This document shows positions 49,875-57,491 of a stretch of 64,000 nt of DNA, in pieces. Below the pieces are notes generated by a model. The model made no database searches. It was not told where the DNA came from and worked only from the letters and a program-made list of their open reading frames with translations. This DNA is from a phage, in sequence record PZ338878.1; one strand, given 5' to 3'. The position numbers and the translations under genes are program-made. Positions within the stretch are counted from its first letter, which is position 1, and each line of letters starts with the position of its first letter.

Positions 49875-50216
49875 ATGGAGCTAACAGAAGTATGGGATAT
49901 CGCTAAAGAGGCGATTATCCCTCTTATTGGTGTAATCTGGGTGGTCTTCAAACAGAAGATAGATGATATAGCAAGTGATTTGGATAAAATGGAAGACAAA
50001 TACCGTGAACTAGAAAAGAAGTTGGTGTTTGTTGAATCCACTTATGCTACCAAAGCAGAACTTGCTCAAATGCTTAACCAGATCAACTCTACATTAATGG
50101 CAAATAATACTGCCTTAGAACAGAAGATTGAAAAAATAATGGATTTAAAAAATGCTCCTGTTCAATTAATGCTAGAGGAGATTACGAAGCGCACACAAAG
50201 TAAGGACAAAAATTAA
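49875..50216 (+). CDS. hypothetical protein with N-terminal hydrophobic segment and coiled coil
   Basis: IIPLIGVIWVVF then heptad-like charged sequence. Confidence 0.35.
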   Translation: MELTEVWDIAKEAIIPLIGVIWVVFKQKIDDIASDLDKMEDKYRELEKKLVFVESTYATKAELAQMLNQINSTLMANNTALEQKIEKIMDLKNAPVQLMLEEITKRTQSKDKN

Positions 50217-52630
50217 TGGCGAATTTTCCAACATATCCTGCTACGACACTAGAACAAGGTGTTGATCTGGTTATATTCTCGTCTAACCAGATGCATGATG
50301 TTATTAACGGGGATGCTACAGCAACTGTAGAAACCGAAACAGGTTTAATACCTACACTGCGTAAAGCACTTGTTGATAACTTCTTCTTTAAGAGTCCTGT
50401 TGCTTGGTCAGCAGGATCAACTGAAACTGTATTTAACCAGTTACGTTATTTTGAAAACGGTATCTTGAGTGGGTACTACTATGCTCCATCTGCCACTACT
50501 GCGAACCCTGTACCTATGCAGGGTACACCTGTAGGAGACAGTAACTGGACTCTGTATGCTCTTAAAACTGAACAGTTAGCTTCAGATGTGTATCCTTGGT
50601 ATTTTAAAGGTGCTACAGGGTATGAGACAGAAATCAGTCCTCCTTATATCTTTGATAATGCTATTGTCACCATTAACGGTGTAATTCAGATTCAGGGTGA
50701 AGCATTTACTATCAAAGATAGTAAAATTATTCTGGCAGAACCATTAGGTTTAGATCCGTCTACTGGTCTACCTAACAAATTGTTTGCTTTTATTGGTAAA
50801 ACAACAGCCTCTACTTCTTACGTAGAGAAAAACCTTTTGTCATCTACCACTGGTGCAGCAATGGTTGGTCTTCCATCTGGAGGCAATCTGTTACAAGCTC
50901 AATACTTTGTAACGCCTGAGCAGTTTGGTGCAATTGGTGATGGAGTTACCGATGATACTCAAGCAATTCTAAAAACCATTACTTTCGCTAACACGAATAA
51001 CATTCAAGTACGTGCAGATAAGAATTATAGATTCACAAGCTCAATTGCTATGTCTGGTATTCGTTGGTATGGTGGTACATTCACTGGTAACGGTGGAACA
51101 ATGATTTCTACTGTGTCCTGTTGGATTGAAAACGTTCGCTTTGAAAAATGTTATGTTAAGATGTTAGGTGGTGATTGCCGATTCTATCGTAATATCTTCT
51201 CCAACGCAACATCTACAGCAGCATTTTTAATGCAAGCAATGACAAGTGAAGGTACGTTGGACTTCAGTTACAACGAAATGTATGGTTGTAAATATGCGAT
51301 CCTGCAACAAGGTACTGGAGAAGTAATGACCTATGGGCGTTACTCTAACAACTACATTCACGATATCAAAGGTGATGCTATTGAACTTAACGTAGTTCAA
51401 AAACACTACACTGAAGGTTTGATCATCGAGAATAACCACATTGCTAACGTAGATGCTTCTGGACAAGGGGCAAACTGGGGTATTGGTATTGGTGTAGCAG
51501 GTAGTGGCCCATATGGTGTTGATGCTCCTGATTCACAATATGTACGTAACTTCAGTATCGTTGGAAATAGGGTTTACAATTGCCGTCAATGTTTACACGT
51601 TGAAATGGGTAAAAACTTCACTATACGTGACAACGAAGTTTATCCTAACACAGCAGTTTCAACAGGTACAGGTTTAACTACTTGTGGTGTTGCATTATAC
51701 GGATGCCAAGATTTTGAAGTTGATGGTTTAACTGGTTATCTGCTTAATGATCCGTCTGTTTCAACACGCATGGTCTTTATTGACTGGGGTGTTAACAGTG
51801 GAAGATATGCGGGGCCACCAATTAACTTTACAATTAAGAATTTGGATATTCCAGAATCTTCAATTGAAATTGCAACGGCTGGATCAGATGCCTGGGAAAA
51901 CTCTACAATTGTTAGTAACATCAATTGTAATGTTTTTAAATGGCGTGGATTACCATCTAGCTCTACCTTTAATAATATTCGTTGCCGTAGTATTGACTTT
52001 ATTGGTCAACACGGAAGCGGAGAAGGAAGTGGTGGCGGTTTCTATACTCGCAGCCAATTCACTTATATGAAGTGGGTAGGATGTACAGCACTTAGCGGAG
52101 ATGAAACAACAGTTTCTTTTGCTAAAATCTACACGGATCGTTGCGATCAGGTTGGAAATAACTTTGGTGTTCCAACTGCTGTTGATGGTACAGGTCATCG
52201 TGGGCCAGTCTTAACCACTATTTCTGAACAATATTTTACAGATTATGATGAATTCCCAGGTGGGCGTGACTTCCCTACTGGAACAGTTATTCATTGTGCA
52301 AGCGGTAAAAAACACGTTGTTACAGTAGGTGGTGCTTTCTTTAGTAATAATGAGAAAATAAAAGCAACTGTTACAGGTCAAACCTATCTACAGTCTAATG
52401 CTTTAAACTGGGCTAGTAATGGCTACGCTAAAGCGGCAGGTACTAAGATTGTTATTCCAGGTGCAGGAGCAAATGGTGGCGATCTTGTGACAACTATAGC
52501 ACGTGCTACGTATGTGACAAATAGTTTGTACACAATAGATATTGCAGATCCAATTGTAACACCTACAGCAGAGAATACACAAATTAAAGCTCTGAACCCT
52601 GTTACTTTTGTTACTGTCAATAATGCTTAA
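50216..52630 (+). CDS. second tailspike with pectate-lyase-like beta-helix domain (candidate depolymerase)
   Basis: QFGAIGDGVTDDTQAIL signature; shares a 35-nt identical DNA stretch with gene 43347. Confidence 0.55.
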   Translation: MANFPTYPATTLEQGVDLVIFSSNQMHDVINGDATATVETETGLIPTLRKALVDNFFFKSPVAWSAGSTETVFNQLRYFENGILSGYYYAPSATTANPVPMQGTPVGDSNWTLYALKTEQLASDVYPWYFKGATGYETEISPPYIFDNAIVTINGVIQIQGEAFTIKDSKIILAEPLGLDPSTGLPNKLFAFIGKTTASTSYVEKNLLSSTTGAAMVGLPSGGNLLQAQYFVTPEQFGAIGDGVTDDTQAILKTITFANTNNIQVRADKNYRFTSSIAMSGIRWYGGTFTGNGGTMISTVSCWIENVRFEKCYVKMLGGDCRFYRNIFSNATSTAAFLMQAMTSEGTLDFSYNEMYGCKYAILQQGTGEVMTYGRYSNNYIHDIKGDAIELNVVQKHYTEGLIIENNHIANVDASGQGANWGIGIGVAGSGPYGVDAPDSQYVRNFSIVGNRVYNCRQCLHVEMGKNFTIRDNEVYPNTAVSTGTGLTTCGVALYGCQDFEVDGLTGYLLNDPSVSTRMVFIDWGVNSGRYAGPPINFTIKNLDIPESSIEIATAGSDAWENSTIVSNINCNVFKWRGLPSSSTFNNIRCRSIDFIGQHGSGEGSGGGFYTRSQFTYMKWVGCTALSGDETTVSFAKIYTDRCDQVGNNFGVPTAVDGTGHRGPVLTTISEQYFTDYDEFPGGRDFPTGTVIHCASGKKHVVTVGGAFFSNNEKIKATVTGQTYLQSNALNWASNGYAKAAGTKIVIPGAGANGGDLVTTIARATYVTNSLYTIDIADPIVTPTAENTQIKALNPVTFVTVNNA

Positions 52631-52632
52631 TT

Positions 52633-52653
52633 AAAAGGGGCGAAAGCCCCTTT
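52633..52653 (+). terminator. rho-independent terminator
   Basis: AAAAGGGGC-GAAA-GCCCCTTT. Confidence 0.5.
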
Positions 52654-52670
52654 ATAAAAGGAGTAGTAAA

Positions 52671-54632
52671 GTGATTTTAACACGTCCAAATAGTGCCATT
52701 GCAGACATGGTAGAGTCTCGCTATAGAAAGCGTAGAAGTTTTGCAAGTGGTTTTACCTTAAGAGATGCTCGTGAAGCATTGCTCTTTGAAGCTGACGGTA
52801 ACTACTATCAGTGGAAAGGTTCTCTACCTAAAGTTGTACCTGCTAACTCTACTCCTACATCTACTGGAGGGATTTCAGATACAGCTTGGAAAAATGTGGG
52901 TAATGCAGATGACATTGCTCAAATAGAATCAGAATTAGATGCTATTGAAGCTGAAATTGAAGATCTTAGAGAATCCATCCCAGAAGCTGGTAAATCAGCT
53001 TACCAGATTGCCGTAGACAATGGTTTCCAAGGTACTGAGACACAGTGGTTGGCTTCTTTAAAAGGTGATCCAGGTGCTCCATTAAAGCTATTAGGGACAC
53101 TATCTAATACCAACCAATTACCTACAAGTGGAAACAATGCAGGGGATGCATGGATTGTAGGCGAGAATATGTATGCTTGGGATGGTACTGCTTGGAGAAA
53201 AGTAAACTCACAGGGGCCAGAAGGTAAATCTGCTTATGAAGTATGGCTTGCAGCAGGAAATGAAGGTACAGAACTAGATTATCTTGCTTCAATTAAAGGT
53301 GATAAAGGGGAGCCTGGCCCAGAGGGGCCACAAGGTGTGCCAGGTAATAATGCTAATGGTTTTGATTACCAAGGCGCAGCTAATTCCGTTTCAGATCTTC
53401 CTTCTGCATCTCATGGAAACACATCTCAAGCATGGAGTGTTGGTACATATCTATACGTGTCAAACGGTGTAGAATGGATCAATATGGGTGCTATAGTGGG
53501 GCCAAAAGGAGATAAAGGCGACAAAGGTGATAAGGGTAACACTGGTGATTCAGCTTATCAAGTCTGGTTAAATGCTGGTAACGTTGGTACTATTGACGAA
53601 TATATTGCCTCTCTGAAAGGAGAAAAAGGTGATAAGGGAGACAAGGGTGATCAAGGTGCACAGGGTATACAAGGCTTGACGGGGCCAACTGGTGCAGGGT
53701 TGACCATTATTGACATTCTGACTAACACTTCTGAACTACCACAAACTGGAGAAGAGGGTGATGGTTATCTGATCAATAATGAACTTTGGGTCTGGTTGCA
53801 AGGAGCCACAGAGTGGACAAATGTTGGTCGTTTAGCTGGTACTCCAATCACTGCAAAAGGACACGTTGCGTCTGCAAGTGCACTTCCTCCTACAGCTAAT
53901 TACGGTGATGCTTATCTGACGGAAGATACAGGTCATCTTTACATTTACACCTATGATGAACAAACTCAAACTGCTGAATATGTAGATATGGGTAGTTTGA
54001 AAGGTGATAAGGGTGAAAAAGGTGACGCTGGTACTAACGGTACAGACGGTGCAACTTGGATTGTTAAAACAACAGATCCAATCTCTAGTGATGGTAAACA
54101 AGGTGATTATGCCTTTAATATCTCCACGGGCGAGGTGTTCTTAAAAACATCTGCAACTGTCTGGACTTCTCAAGGTACACTACCTAGTATCACAGATGCA
54201 CCTAGTGACGGTAAGACTTATGCTCGTAAAGATGGGGCATGGGAAGAACTCACTAATTCTGTAGATGGTCAAGATATAGTTCCAACAAAAGTAACAACTA
54301 ATTTTATAGAGGTTACAGCATATACCAACAATTCTGTTACAGGGGACTGGACACCTCCAGGAACACATAACATGAATGTGTTGAATCTTACTGGTAACGC
54401 TACTATAAAAGCATGGCCTGGTGTCGAAGATAGTACAAAACCTAAACCATTCTCTGCAATAGTTTATCTTATCCAAGATGCCACTGGAGGTCGTACTGTT
54501 ACTTTAGATCCATCTTACAAAGTAATTGGTTCCAGTGATATTAATACAGATCCTAACGGAGTAACAATACTACAACTAACATATTGTGGTGTTGGCGATT
54601 ACGTGGATGCTATTGTTGCTAAACGCACATAA
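52671..54632 (+). CDS. tail fibre with collagen-like Gly-X-Y tracts and phage-tail-repeat motifs
   Basis: GDKGEPGPEGPQGVPG, GPKGDKGDKGDKGNTGD, GEKGDKGDKGDQGAQGIQGLTGPTGAG; three SAYQ..W...G..GT...Y.AS.KG repeats; GTG start. Confidence 0.55.
   Translation: MILTRPNSAIADMVESRYRKRRSFASGFTLRDAREALLFEADGNYYQWKGSLPKVVPANSTPTSTGGISDTAWKNVGNADDIAQIESELDAIEAEIEDLRESIPEAGKSAYQIAVDNGFQGTETQWLASLKGDPGAPLKLLGTLSNTNQLPTSGNNAGDAWIVGENMYAWDGTAWRKVNSQGPEGKSAYEVWLAAGNEGTELDYLASIKGDKGEPGPEGPQGVPGNNANGFDYQGAANSVSDLPSASHGNTSQAWSVGTYLYVSNGVEWINMGAIVGPKGDKGDKGDKGNTGDSAYQVWLNAGNVGTIDEYIASLKGEKGDKGDKGDQGAQGIQGLTGPTGAGLTIIDILTNTSELPQTGEEGDGYLINNELWVWLQGATEWTNVGRLAGTPITAKGHVASASALPPTANYGDAYLTEDTGHLYIYTYDEQTQTAEYVDMGSLKGDKGEKGDAGTNGTDGATWIVKTTDPISSDGKQGDYAFNISTGEVFLKTSATVWTSQGTLPSITDAPSDGKTYARKDGAWEELTNSVDGQDIVPTKVTTNFIEVTAYTNNSVTGDWTPPGTHNMNVLNLTGNATIKAWPGVEDSTKPKPFSAIVYLIQDATGGRTVTLDPSYKVIGSSDINTDPNGVTILQLTYCGVGDYVDAIVAKRT
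52989..53696 (+). repeat. intragenic repeats (three roughly 30-aa units plus collagen-like triplets)
   Basis: Repeat units at aa 107-136, 185-214 and 291-320 of gene 52671; Gly-X-Y runs at aa 209-226, 277-293, 316-342. Confidence 0.5.
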
Positions 54633-54671: not shown

Positions 54672-57491
54672 ATGTATCCTATTCCTTTATTTATGTCAAC
54701 AACATCAGCTTCAGTAGTAACAGCTACATCTATAACCACTTCCTCTATTGGTATTGCAATAGTTGGTAGTAAAAAGCAACTGACATACACAGTTTCACCG
54801 GAAGATGGTGCGTTATTTGATATAGCTTTTTCATCTTCAGATAATACCAAAATGGTTATAGATAATAATGGTATGATGGAGTTTGTTGCCGAAGGTGGTT
54901 TTGATGCAATAATGACAGCTAAAAATAATTTAGGTGCTGTCTTAACTGATCAATCTGGTGGCTATGCTTCAGAATTAAGTGTGTACACTGAAAGTCTGTC
55001 TGCTATGGATGCAGGAACTACTCAACAATTGGTTGCTACAATCAGTCCAGAAGGTGCTAAAGACCTTCCAGACATGGTAATTACGTACACCACAACAGAT
55101 CCAGAAGTAGCTACTGTAAGTCCTACAGGATTAATAACTGCTCTTAAAGATGGCAGTTGCCGTATAGGTTGCACTGCAACTTATCAAGGAACAGTGGTGG
55201 CCTCTGATAGTTCTTATTTAGGTGTTAATGCTGTTCCTGTTATTTCTAATGTAACAGCCGTGGCAAACAGCTATGGAGACATTCGTGTTGCTTGGGATGT
55301 AGCTGATCCGCTAGATGGTGATACTTATACTGTAGAAGTATTAGATTTAAGTAATAACAGTGTCCAGTGGACTACAACAACCACGAATACTTACGCTTAC
55401 TTTGATATCTCTGACTCTATTCCTCTTTATGGGTTTGCTCCAACATACCTTAAAATTAGCGTTAAGAGCACCAAAGCAGCACCCGTTATCTTTAATAACT
55501 CAATAGCTACAGATGATTCATTCATTAAAGAAGTTATTGTCTTTGCTGGACAAGATAACGTAAATGCACACTTTACAGAACTATCTGGTGCAAATAAAGC
55601 AGCAATGAGTAGCACAACAGCCCGTAATGCATATGCTACGCAACGTGGTTTAGCAAATGCTGAAGTTCTCCCGTTAAATACAGCTTCTGGATCATCAGCA
55701 GCAGATAAATATGCTGACGATAAAGCTGGAACAGGTACACCAGACAACTACTGGTATGATCTGGATAACACAGCAGATGGGCCATGCTTAACTAACTTTA
55801 TCACTAAAGTCACACCTTATGCAAGTAAGGTTAAAGCGATTATTTGGGGACAAGGTGAAAATGATGCTGTATCAGCATCTTCAACTGTTGCAGGTAGATA
55901 CAGTAACACTACACGTTACCATGATGCTACGATAGCTATCTTTGATAAGATGCGTACAATAGTTCCTGCTTCTCAAGCAAAAATTGTTTGGCAGATCCTA
56001 GGACGTTCTTATTTATATGGTGTAGAAGTTAATGGTGTGGATTGGCAGAAATACAGAAATGTACAAAGAACCATCTCTACAGCACGTGACGATGTTATCA
56101 TTGGTTCTTGGGTGGATGGTGCTGAACGCTACAGTGGTTATGTTTATGAAGAAGGTATTGCTGGTCGTATCCATTATATTTCTTCTGTATACCAAACAGC
56201 AGCTACAAAACTTGCTAAATCAGCAGCAGACGGTACAGACCTAACATCAACGTCACCTGTTTGGGTTGATATGGCTGTTCCAACTGGAGCAACAGCTATT
56301 TCCCAATCTAATCAAGATATAATTTTAGCATGGGATGCTCAAGGTTATAGTAAACACTACTTCCGTAATATTAACGTCTTAACAGCATCTGTATTAACTG
56401 AACAAACCCTTAATACGAACAGTTATACGTTTACCTATGCAGATCAAGTAGAACAATATGGTTTTGCAGCAGGTACTACGGTATTTGATGTTGCATATTA
56501 TGACGAAGCAAATGATGTGTTATCTCCTTTAGTACGTTTTAATGTTAGCGTTACAGCAGGAAAAGTAGAAGATAAACCTGTCGTGATGGATTATGATTTG
56601 ACACAAGAAACTCTTCCATCAGATGTTAAGGTTAATGGTGGGAACTCTTTTGCTCGTGCTTCTGGAGATAAACTTGTAGCCACTAACACCTTGGTTGCTC
56701 CGTTGGAGTATGTTGGTACTACCCCTGTAGGTAGACGTGTAACAGCTAACACAGCTACACAAATTTTTGTCAACAACGCCTTAACAAGCGCAAGCCCGTG
56801 GGTAAAGACCAACTTAACTGTTGCAGCTTCATCTGATAACTCTCCGGCTGGAACTACTGCTAATGTATTCAAATTAACTCCGACTACAACCTCTGGTAGT
56901 CATATCTTAACTGCAACATATACTAACGCGTACAACATATCTGCCGGACGTAACTGGTCTGCCTCTGTTTTCTTGAAAGCGAACGGGATTACTAAGGCCA
57001 AACTAAGATTAAAAGCAGGAACTGAAGTTAATGAGGGTACTTTTGATTTAGCAGCAGGTACATTCGCAGGAAGTGAAGCTAATATTATATCTATGGGCAA
57101 CGGTTGGTATCGTGCTATTCTGCATAAAACAGGGATAGCCAAACAGTCCTCCATAAGTTTTGAAATAATTGCCTTGGATGCAACTGGTGCGGAGATTTTC
57201 GCTGGAGATGGTACTAGTAACCTTGCAGTTTGGTTGCCACAGCTTGAAGGTGCTTCTACAGGAGACACATCAAAAGCTGGATCGCCTTATGTCTGCACAT
57301 ATCCTGGAAATTTAGGAGGAGTATCCTTCACTATACCAAGGAACGGACATACTGGTGTGGATGTTTACTATTCCAACGGAGACGTTGTTCGTGACGTATT
57401 CTCTGGTACGGCATCTACTTGGACAATAAACTACTCCAGCTTGTACGATTGGGGATCAGTCTTTATTACAGGTTTGAAATATTACGACTAA
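54672..57491 (+). CDS. tail protein with Ig-like segments and a SASA/SGNH-type carbohydrate esterase-like domain
   Basis: VIVFAGQDNVNAHF (GQxN block) and IWGQGENDA (QGExD block) resemble sialate O-acetylesterase motifs, with Asp in place of the usual Ser. Confidence 0.45.
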   Translation: MYPIPLFMSTTSASVVTATSITTSSIGIAIVGSKKQLTYTVSPEDGALFDIAFSSSDNTKMVIDNNGMMEFVAEGGFDAIMTAKNNLGAVLTDQSGGYASELSVYTESLSAMDAGTTQQLVATISPEGAKDLPDMVITYTTTDPEVATVSPTGLITALKDGSCRIGCTATYQGTVVASDSSYLGVNAVPVISNVTAVANSYGDIRVAWDVADPLDGDTYTVEVLDLSNNSVQWTTTTTNTYAYFDISDSIPLYGFAPTYLKISVKSTKAAPVIFNNSIATDDSFIKEVIVFAGQDNVNAHFTELSGANKAAMSSTTARNAYATQRGLANAEVLPLNTASGSSAADKYADDKAGTGTPDNYWYDLDNTADGPCLTNFITKVTPYASKVKAIIWGQGENDAVSASSTVAGRYSNTTRYHDATIAIFDKMRTIVPASQAKIVWQILGRSYLYGVEVNGVDWQKYRNVQRTISTARDDVIIGSWVDGAERYSGYVYEEGIAGRIHYISSVYQTAATKLAKSAADGTDLTSTSPVWVDMAVPTGATAISQSNQDIILAWDAQGYSKHYFRNINVLTASVLTEQTLNTNSYTFTYADQVEQYGFAAGTTVFDVAYYDEANDVLSPLVRFNVSVTAGKVEDKPVVMDYDLTQETLPSDVKVNGGNSFARASGDKLVATNTLVAPLEYVGTTPVGRRVTANTATQIFVNNALTSASPWVKTNLTVAASSDNSPAGTTANVFKLTPTTTSGSHILTATYTNAYNISAGRNWSASVFLKANGITKAKLRLKAGTEVNEGTFDLAAGTFAGSEANIISMGNGWYRAILHKTGIAKQSSISFEIIALDATGAEIFAGDGTSNLAVWLPQLEGASTGDTSKAGSPYVCTYPGNLGGVSFTIPRNGHTGVDVYYSNGDVVRDVFSGTASTWTINYSSLYDWGSVFITGLKYYD

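Follow-up and report, generated by a model that had tools for sequence, protein, structure and literature searches.

Collagen-like repeats flank a variable region in the antireceptors of Streptococcus thermophilus phages, and in collagen-like phage fibre and host-specificity proteins, as in the gene analyzed here, the repeat-encoding DNA is a site of indels and of module exchange. The nearest solved relative of two of the elements described below, the B unit and the foldon-like motif, is gp54 of phage JBD30 (DUF2793; PDB 8rk3), a trimeric fibre-type protein. The matches between gp54 and the protein studied here are weak and partial, and gp54 has neither collagen tracts nor A units and carries another tip (PMC11445458). 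The collagen-like proteins of E. coli O157 prophages have short, bacterial-type Gly-X-Y tracts in a trimeric fibre, with interrupting non-collagen trimerisation domains (PMC3368898); if the two are likened by this description, the interrupting domains of our protein would be the A unit, the B unit and the foldon-like motif. The closest relative overall is gp151 of phage phi92, one of the adsorption proteins of that phage, for which the GenBank record notes a 'central domain predicted as coiled-coil fold'. In a 2026 cryo-EM study, AlphaFold3 models of gp151 fitted no fibre density in phi92 virions (PMC13450770), an observation that stands against the fibre-shaft model set out below. A thin, segmented and probably flexible rod would nevertheless be compatible with the absence of gp151 from averaged maps.

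The gp151-type gene and its N-terminal anchor

The window, a stretch of 64,000 nucleotides of phage DNA (PZ338878.1), carries on its plus strand an open reading frame of 653 aa (52671..54632) with a GTG start and an AAGGAG 7 nt 5' of it. The orthologue of this gene in phi92 is gp151, and its product is a putative accessory (lateral) tail fibre: gp151 covers 100% of the gene at 98.8% nucleotide identity, and 56 Justusliebigvirus records show nucleotide identities of 97-99.4%. PHROG 15437 'tail fiber protein' matches from end to end (aa 1-653, 1364 bits). The orthologues in GenBank are annotated as tail fibre, to which some records add 'with type I collagen domain', and the records of the BASEL collection use the name 'lateral tail fiber protein with type I collagen domain'. 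Judged by its sequence, the gene thus belongs to the gp151-type tail fibres of phi92-like coliphages, a type that is known already and uncharacterised. The initial annotation as a tail fibre gene is borne out by the orthology, by the end-to-end PHROG match and by the anchor domain described below. Apart from one moderately interesting point, the A unit, the protein is an ordinary mosaic phage fibre. For the window, the practical value of the analysis lies in the correct annotation of the gene as an accessory tail fibre of gp151 type and in the map of its modules, which shows experimenters where to cut constructs.

The 5' neighbour (50216-52630) matches PHROG 6117 'colanic acid degradation' and corresponds to the colanidase tailspike gp150. 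The order of colanidase tailspike gene and gp151 orthologue is common to the window, phi92, PD06, ECGD1 and alia, whereas the gene downstream in the window is a 939-aa variant and not gp152/gp153 as in phi92. In Justusliebigvirus and Phapecoctavirus the same gene is found, 1962 or 1971 nt long and likewise preceded by that of the colanidase tailspike. Near-identical orthologues differ from the window only by point changes and a one-triplet indel in Gly-X-Y tract 4, and phAPEC8-like orthologues, which are about 60% identical, keep the same order of modules. A scan of IMG/VR for relatives returned two loci only, both near-identical. Full-text literature searches with motif strings of the A unit returned unrelated words only, and a search for Justusliebigvirus together with collagen found nothing.

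At the N-terminus, aa 11-77 (52701..52901) match the Pfam domain Tail_spike_N (PF18668; E 4.2e-21, 75.2 bits, cut-off 25), which is the model of the TSP1/gp66 N-terminus. Searches of the PDB by sequence and with Foldseek matched this domain to the tailspike N-termini of CBA120 TSP1/3/4 and G7C gp63.1, and in tblastn aa 18-92 matched K1F gp17 and the spikes of Kayfunavirus. The domain would plug the fibre into the baseplate or the tailspike cluster. It is followed by a single long alpha-helix in the AF2 model (aa 82-102; 52914..52976), which probably forms a short trimeric coiled coil.

Repeated units and Gly-X-Y tracts

The modules of the protein are arranged in the order anchor domain, coiled coil, A-B-A-col-B-col-A-col-B-B-col-B, foldon-like motif and a presumed receptor-binding tip. 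The initial annotation had described a thrice-repeated 30-aa motif in a region from 52989, the first Gly of A copy 1, to 53696, the end of Gly-X-Y tract 3. Both boundaries and the three copies, here termed A units, were recovered, and the conserved core of the motif proved to be 26-28 aa long, with a 26-aa pattern GxSAYxxxxxxGxxGTxxx(W/Y)(L/I)ASxKG. Each of the three units consists of two short helices in the AF2 model: A unit 1 (GKSAYQIAVDNGFQGTETQWLASLKG, aa 107-132; 52989..53066) with helices at 110-116 and 123-130, A unit 2 (GKSAYEVWLAAGNEGTELDYLASIKG, aa 185-210; 53223..53300) at 188-194 and 201-208, and A unit 3 (GDSAYQVWLNAGNVGTIDEYIASLKG, aa 292-317; 53544..53621) at 295-301 and 308-315. 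The pLDDT of the A units in this monomer model is only about 50-75. In pairwise comparisons 13-17 of 28 residues are identical, and ungapped BLOSUM62 scores range from 64 to 90, far above the 32.7 +/- 4.1 (maximum 53) obtained when the protein was shuffled 200 times and the best off-diagonal window of 28 aa was scored each time. At the DNA level the units are 56-61% identical. Such identity is too low for ready recombination between the copies to be expected, and it makes the long-period repeat invisible to Tandem Repeats Finder (TRF). Tandem-repeat analysis, which the initial annotation had proposed as a check, accordingly picked up 9-nt arrays inside the tracts and missed the repeat of the motif itself. 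A recent tandem duplication was rejected on the same DNA identity and on the conservation of three copies across the subfamily.

All orthologues with identities down to about 41-46% have three A units, apart from a few that score two. The number per protein ranges from 0 to 19 among the 120 homologues listed and reaches 38 in a wider library, and with clustering at 50% identity at least 20,244 clusters of proteins contain the unit. When the window protein and the 120 homologues listed were taken together, a run of at least three Gly-X-Y triplets directly followed 347 of their 617 A units and directly preceded 253 of them. The unit has no dedicated Pfam family, and a search of its profile against the PDB gave chance matches only (designed toroid repeats and HincII, E >= 0.01), with no solved relative. 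The nearest named family is DUF2934 (PF11154), with which it shares a helical hairpin signature of the type AY..W...G..G...(D/E)W. Membership in this family was considered and rejected: the window protein has no DUF2934 match at E <= 1 in Pfam, the orthologue P0002 remains below the threshold (14.8 bits, cut-off 22), and only those relatives that have 11-19 copies of the unit exceed it (37-42 bits), with matches that span only positions 10-30 of the 37 profile positions. DUF2934 has neither a known function nor a known structure and so explains nothing about the A unit.

What alternates with the A units and the collagen tracts are five beta units of about 45 aa (B units), which were absent from the initial annotation. 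B unit 1 (aa 137-179; 53079..53207; LPxxGxxGDAWIV..MYAWDGTAW..V; HMM 3e-16) is modelled by AF2 as four strands, most of the unit having a pLDDT of about 81-86, and B unit 2 (aa 230-277; 53358..53501; HMM 3.6e-13) as strands with a pLDDT of 83-86. Strands are likewise predicted for B unit 3 (aa 343-390; 53697..53840; HMM 7.7e-17), for B unit 4 (aa 392-445; 53844..54005; HMM 3.6e-14), which has an extended hairpin insertion, and for the divergent B unit 5 (aa 460-505; 54048..54185), with a weak HMM match of 2.4e-5. The B-unit profile matches gp184 (8y6v) and the trimeric receptor-binding protein gp54 of JBD30, the latter at its residues 44-62, and Foldseek also returned gp54 (8rk3_E, E 2.4e-3). 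The idea that the B unit is a duplicate of the foldon was dropped, as profile comparison with hhalign gave probabilities of 9% for the foldon-like segment of the window protein and 8% for the T4 fibritin C-terminus.

Four Gly-X-Y tracts were found, one more than had been claimed, the fourth lying downstream of the region marked in the initial annotation. Tract 1 (GDKGEPGPEGPQGVPG, aa 210-225; 53298..53345) has six Gly positions, each of them invariant in 28 homologues. Tract 2 (GPKGDKGDKGDKGNTG, aa 277-292; 53499..53546), which varies in length among orthologues, also has six and includes a 9-nt TRF array (53505-53527). The longest, tract 3 (GEKGDKGDKGDQGAQGIQGLTGPTG, aa 317-341; 53619..53693), has nine Gly positions and a 9/18-nt array (53619-53656), and this stretch is annotated as 'repeat_region' in the record of phage alia. 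Tract 4 (GDKGEKGDAGTNGTDG, aa 445-460; 54003..54050) has six Gly positions and an array at 54000-54025. Within the tracts TRF reported only short 9-nt arrays of 2-4 copies. The statement that each motif copy is followed by a Gly-X-Y run holds for copies 2 and 3, copy 3 being flanked on both sides, but copy 1 is followed only by GDPGAP, which amounts to two triplets. Similarly, of the two sequences in which the runs were said to be rich, GDK is the common triplet but GEPG occurs once. The protein scores above the cut-off for Pfam Collagen (PF01391; 33.1 bits, cut-off 27.2). The NCBIfam matches to the collagen adhesins Scl1, Scl2 and Lcl all remained below threshold and are driven by Gly-X-Y composition, and membership in these families was rejected.

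We consider it probable that the accessory tail fibre is a homotrimer and that this region forms its shaft, in which collagen segments alternate with A and B beads and the length of the tracts varies through slippage. Such a shaft would be a beads-on-a-string rod whose short triple helices, of collagen type and 5-8 Gly-X-Y triplets long, contain many K-G-D/E charge pairs in place of proline. Charge pairs of this type are reportedly stabilising, and the tracts contain 2-4 KGD/KGE motifs and 0-4 prolines each. Two kinds of small trimeric knots would interrupt and clamp the helices, namely the A unit, a helix-turn-helix hairpin of about 26 aa that would enter and leave the Gly-X-Y register directly, and the four-stranded B unit of about 45 aa. 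The trimeric packing of the A unit is a guess on our part.

Some properties of the tracts stand against a triple-helical shaft, namely that they are short and poor in proline (0-4 Pro each) and have pLDDT values below 50 in the monomer model. The same properties, that is the length of only 5-8 triplets, the few prolines and the low pLDDT in AF2, together with the fact that phages which are nearly identical differ in tract length and that no phenotype is tied to this, would suit a reading in which the tracts are flexible low-complexity linkers or hinges that form no triple helix, and in which their length variation is neutral slippage noise. We regard this reading as unlikely. The low pLDDT comes from a monomer model, in which no triple helix can show. 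Moreover, the Gly at each third position is strictly or nearly strictly kept across the 28 homologues, in which the residues at X and Y differ and the tracts vary in length, and both the indel examined at the DNA level (n=1) and the differences in tract length between orthologues comprise whole triplets. A plain linker requires neither the Gly register nor indels of whole triplets. The tracts are, in addition, flanked by units and by a foldon-like motif that are typical of trimeric fibres.

Foldon-like motif, tip domain and breakpoints

A foldon-like beta-hairpin motif was identified at aa 507-528 (ITDAPSDGKTYARKDGAWEELT; 54189..54254) by a phmmer search of the PDB. With aa 495-540 as the query, this search matched the foldon chains of T4 fibritin (8udn, 5.5e-4; 1rfo, 2.1e-3) and many foldon fusion proteins, including the engineered collagen-foldon fusions 1nay and 9gfr, as well as residues 121-147 of JBD30 gp54 (2.4e-5). 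Compared by eye, 11 of 19 residues are identical between this motif and the T4 fibritin foldon (DAPSDGKTYARKDGAWEEL vs EAPRDGQAYVRKDGEWVLL). The Pfam score for Fibritin_C (PF07921) lies just below the cut-off (19.4 bits, cut-off 21), which the relative P0028 exceeds with 36.9 bits. The window protein would seem, as far as the sequence can tell, to be a natural pairing of collagen tracts with a foldon-type trimeriser. The foldon of T4 fibritin is C-terminal, whereas the motif is internal here and a tip domain of 125 aa comes after it, and T4 fibritin is unrelated to the rest of the window protein. Located just before the C-terminal tip, the hairpin would nucleate and register the trimer.

The tip (aa 535-653; 54273..54629) is all-beta in the AF2 model and corresponds to a match with the C-terminus of PHROG 4549 (aa 526-653). 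Tail fibres of rV5-like phages and of GAP32 are 42-50% identical to its aa 545/557-652 in tblastn. The tip is probably the part of the fibre that binds the receptor.

The foldon-like motif, as in T4 fibritin, and the coiled-coil segment would also fit a whisker of the fibritin kind or a fibre decorating the capsid or neck, with a role in environmental sensing or loose surface adhesion, and gp151 has been located in no baseplate fibre density (PMC13450770). However, the N-terminus carries a Tail_spike_N domain, a type that attaches tailspikes and fibres to tail structures, and not the attachment domain of fibritin or of Pa223, to which the match is weak (TM scores 0.14 and 0.27). The gene lies inside the baseplate and tailspike cluster, directly 3' of the colanidase tailspike gene, and the C-terminal tip is common to tail fibre genes of rV5-like phages. 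We therefore judge it very unlikely that the protein is such a whisker or decoration fibre and not a baseplate fibre.

In tblastn, the groups of phages that are matched differ between the N-terminal domain, the shaft and the tip. The similarity to Tr1, P0017, P0019, P0021 and P0034 stops at aa 448-462, so that homology breakpoints cluster at tract 4, which is a frequent breakpoint site. This is what would be expected if the collagen tracts lie at junctions where distal parts of the fibre were swapped.

Length variation among relatives

The initial annotation held that the repeats are prone to expansion and contraction and that they could tune the length of the fibre. The first of these claims applies to the Gly-X-Y tracts and not to the 26-aa motif, which is fixed at three copies in orthologues and changes in number only at greater distance. 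Among the 56 records at 97-99% identity, one 9-nt unit is the only change in length, and it keeps the reading frame: the gene is 1971 nt long in 7 of the 56 near-full-length records and 1962 nt in the other full-length ones. This unit, a AAAGGTGAG indel in tract 4 that encodes one GEK triplet, is present in PD06, ECGD1 and one IMG/VR contig, and, within a set that is more than 97% identical, sets these three apart from the window, phi92 and the second IMG/VR contig. In the phAPEC8-like orthologues, at about 60% identity, the number of Gly positions is 5-11 in tract 2 and 4-13 in tract 4. For tract 1 it is six in all orthologues, and for tract 3 it is 8-10 in close orthologues. The repeat number is hence not wholly invariant, and the region is not merely a disordered linker, the A and B units being predicted as folded.

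Slippage on 9-nt near-repeats (AAAGGTGAT-like) that encode the collagen tracts would add or remove whole triplets, and one Gly-X-Y triplet corresponds to about 0.86 nm. The A and B units, by comparison, would be ancient repeats that have diverged and whose number is stable in the phi92 gp151 lineage. The idea that the repeats may tune the length of the fibre is partly supported for the tracts, by their variation in length, and for whole modules only at greater distance. Two other kinds of variable locus were considered and rejected. A hypervariable tandem-repeat locus of the contingency type does not agree with the 56-61% DNA identity of the A units or with a single 9-nt change in 56 records, and a phase-variable switch was discarded because the slippage units are 9 nt long and keep the reading frame.

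More tentatively, and with rather less than an even chance of being right, the A unit may be a widespread, unnamed trimerisation clamp that starts, stops and registers short, proline-poor collagen triple helices in phage fibres, a natural counterpart of the foldon tags with which recombinant collagens are folded. Together with the B unit and the tracts it would then make up an interchangeable shaft kit, in which the collagen DNA serves as the recombination joint for swaps of the tip. If the A unit is indeed a nucleator or clamp of short collagen helices, it could be useful for the design of recombinant collagens, as well as for engineering the length of fibres and for swapping tips at the collagen junctions.

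Two further differences in length were seen in single phages. Citrobacter phage Tr1 has two more triplets in tract 2, and the fibre gene of phage EP57 contains an in-frame deletion of 162 aa.

Modular organization of the fibre protein

The fibre gene (52671-54632, + strand) begins at a GTG codon, 7 nt downstream of AAGGAG, and its product of 653 aa is matched end to end by PHROG 15437 'tail fiber protein'. The modules of this protein follow the order Tail_spike_N, helix, A-B-A-col-B-col-A-col-B-B-col-B, foldon-like motif and tip, where A and B are two distinct repeats and col is a Gly-X-Y tract. The initial annotation had placed three copies of a ~30-aa motif, each followed by a Gly-X-Y run, at 52989-53696. 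This feature is real and was correctly spotted, its limits running exactly from the first A unit through tract 3, but it was incompletely described (five B units and a foldon-like motif were missed). The A units (aa 107-132, 185-210 and 292-317; consensus GxSAYxxxxxxGxxGTxxx(W/Y)(L/I)ASxKG) reach pairwise ungapped BLOSUM62 scores of 64-90; when the protein was shuffled 200 times, the top off-diagonal window of 28 aa scored 32.7 +/- 4.1 and never more than 53. The DNA identity among these copies is only 56-61%, and they were therefore missed by TRF on the fibre gene, which did find a 9-nt array in tract 4; the copies are old duplications. The Gly-X-Y tracts (aa 210-225, 277-292, 317-341 and 445-460) bring the protein above the threshold of the Pfam Collagen model, and each contains 2-4 KGD/KGE motifs, which stabilise collagen triple helices. 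Their layout departs from the one first proposed in that copy 1 precedes only two triplets, copy 3 is flanked by tracts on both sides, the fourth tract lies beyond 53696, and GEPG, supposedly abundant, is present once.

The B unit, a repeat of ~45 aa with the signature ..LPxxGxxGDaYxV...lYvW.g..W..vG, is found at aa 137-179, 230-277, 343-390, 392-445 and 460-505. The last copy is followed by a segment (ITDAPSDGKTYARKDGAWEELT, aa 507-528) that matches the foldon of T4 fibritin (chains consisting of the foldon alone at E 5e-4 to 2e-3, with hundreds of foldon fusion proteins matched as well) and also resembles residues 121-147 of JBD30 gp54; the Pfam Fibritin_C score is just sub-threshold. The protein begins with a Tail_spike_N anchor domain (aa 11-77, E 4e-21) and a single long helix (aa 82-102), and ends with a beta-rich tip (aa 535-653). 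A whisker or a capsid fibre is an alternative reading of the protein, but the type of this anchor domain and the position of the gene speak against it.

An AF2 monomer model built with 28 homologues (mean pLDDT 68) has two short helices in each A unit, four strands in each B unit (pLDDT mostly >80) and an all-beta tip. The Gly-X-Y tracts remained below a pLDDT of 50, which is expected because one chain was modelled alone. The tracts could act simply as flexible linkers, but the strict Gly register and the occurrence of indels in whole triplets argue against this. We favour a trimeric rod in which the A and B knots, together with the foldon-like motif as nucleator, would keep short charge-stabilised triple helices in register. 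At 0.286 nm per residue the four tracts together would measure ~21 nm and one added triplet ~0.86 nm, and whole-triplet slippage on 9-nt repeats would alter length while leaving frame and register intact.

Variation and exchange among relatives

At 97-99.4% full-length DNA identity, the gene has a single counterpart in each of 56 GenBank records from Justusliebigvirus phages, including phi92 gp151 (98.8%). It is 1971 nt long in 7 of these 56 near-full-length records and 1962 nt in the other full-length ones, the difference in the records examined being one AAAGGTGAG unit, a GEK triplet within the 9-nt array of tract 4. In the phAPEC8-like orthologues (~60% identical, 622-681 aa) the module order is unchanged. 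The suggestion that the repeats are prone to expansion or contraction held for the tracts (Gly positions: always 6 in tract 1, 5-11 in tract 2, 8-10 in tract 3 and 4-13 in tract 4) but not for the A units, of which there are always three. The homologue of Escherichia phage vB_EcoM_EP57 (P0018) carries a 162-aa in-frame deletion relative to the otherwise near-identical phAPEC8-like P0005, and has lost the end of A3, tract 3, B3, B4 and most of tract 4; it may represent either a naturally shortened shaft or a collapse of the assembly at the repeats. Distant homologues have 0-19 A units, 0-12 B units and tracts of up to 55 Gly positions, and include pure (A-collagen)n, (collagen-B)n and A-array proteins; judged from these arrangements, A, B and collagen appear to behave as a construction kit.

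The N-terminal domain is similar to K1F-type and Kayfunavirus spikes, the shaft to fibres of Pantoea, Cronobacter, Pectobacterium, Erwinia, Burkholderia, Ralstonia and Pseudomonas phages, and the tip (aa 545-652) is 42-50% identical to rV5-like fibres. Since similarity to several relatives ends at aa 448-462, which corresponds to tract 4, or at ~aa 507-522, the collagen-encoding DNA is suggested to act as an exchange joint, the BLAST end-points being too fuzzy for proof. We also observed that the Citrobacter phage Tr1 homologue (L004, 4036-6564) keeps the N-terminal domain and shaft to ~aa 448, followed by a different, longer distal part with a further KGDKGDKGD tract. Here the tip has clearly been swapped at tract 4.

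The main point of interest is the A unit, which is abundant yet without a solved structure. With a profile of the three copies, at least 20,244 cluster representatives were retrieved at E <= 1e-3, and a single protein can hold as many as 38 copies. Among the 617 A units of the fibre protein and its 120 listed homologues, a collagen run lies directly after 56% and directly before 41%. The nearest Pfam family, DUF2934, has no known function and is matched by multi-copy relatives only.

Previous annotation and genomic context

The gene and its collagen-like character were already known, as was this kind of phage fibre. Several records label the gene 'lateral tail fiber protein with type I collagen domain', and one GenBank record has a repeat_region at the exact position of the third tract. 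A 2026 cryo-EM study listed gp151 as a putative fibre, its AlphaFold3 model matching no density (PMC13450770).

The upstream ORF (50216-52630) is orthologous to gp150 and encodes the colanidase tailspike. It is separated from the fibre gene by a gap of 40 nt with a G+C-rich hairpin (AAAAGGGGCGAAAGCCCCTTTATAAAA, 52634-52656) directly before the AAGGAG ribosome-binding site; this hairpin resembles an intrinsic terminator or an attenuator placed between two late genes. The downstream tail protein gene (54672-57491, + strand, 939 aa) encodes Big_2 domains with a weak SASA (carbohydrate esterase) match, and some relatives have it annotated as 'tail carbohydrate esterase'. Gene content at this position varies: two short genes (gp152 and gp153) are present in phi92 and a 1887-nt gene in PD06, and the version in the window is covered for at least 80% in only 27 of 61 records.

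The fibre gene is also present, at 99.2% identity, in four records that are named 'Campylobacter phage' and list Campylobacter jejuni as the host (MG065639, MG065645, MG065656 and MG065689). These genomes are of Justusliebigvirus size, the gene they carry is a coliphage gene, and phAPEC8- and rV5-like phages are matched by other records from this series; the host given for the four looks doubtful, perhaps owing to contamination or mislabelling.
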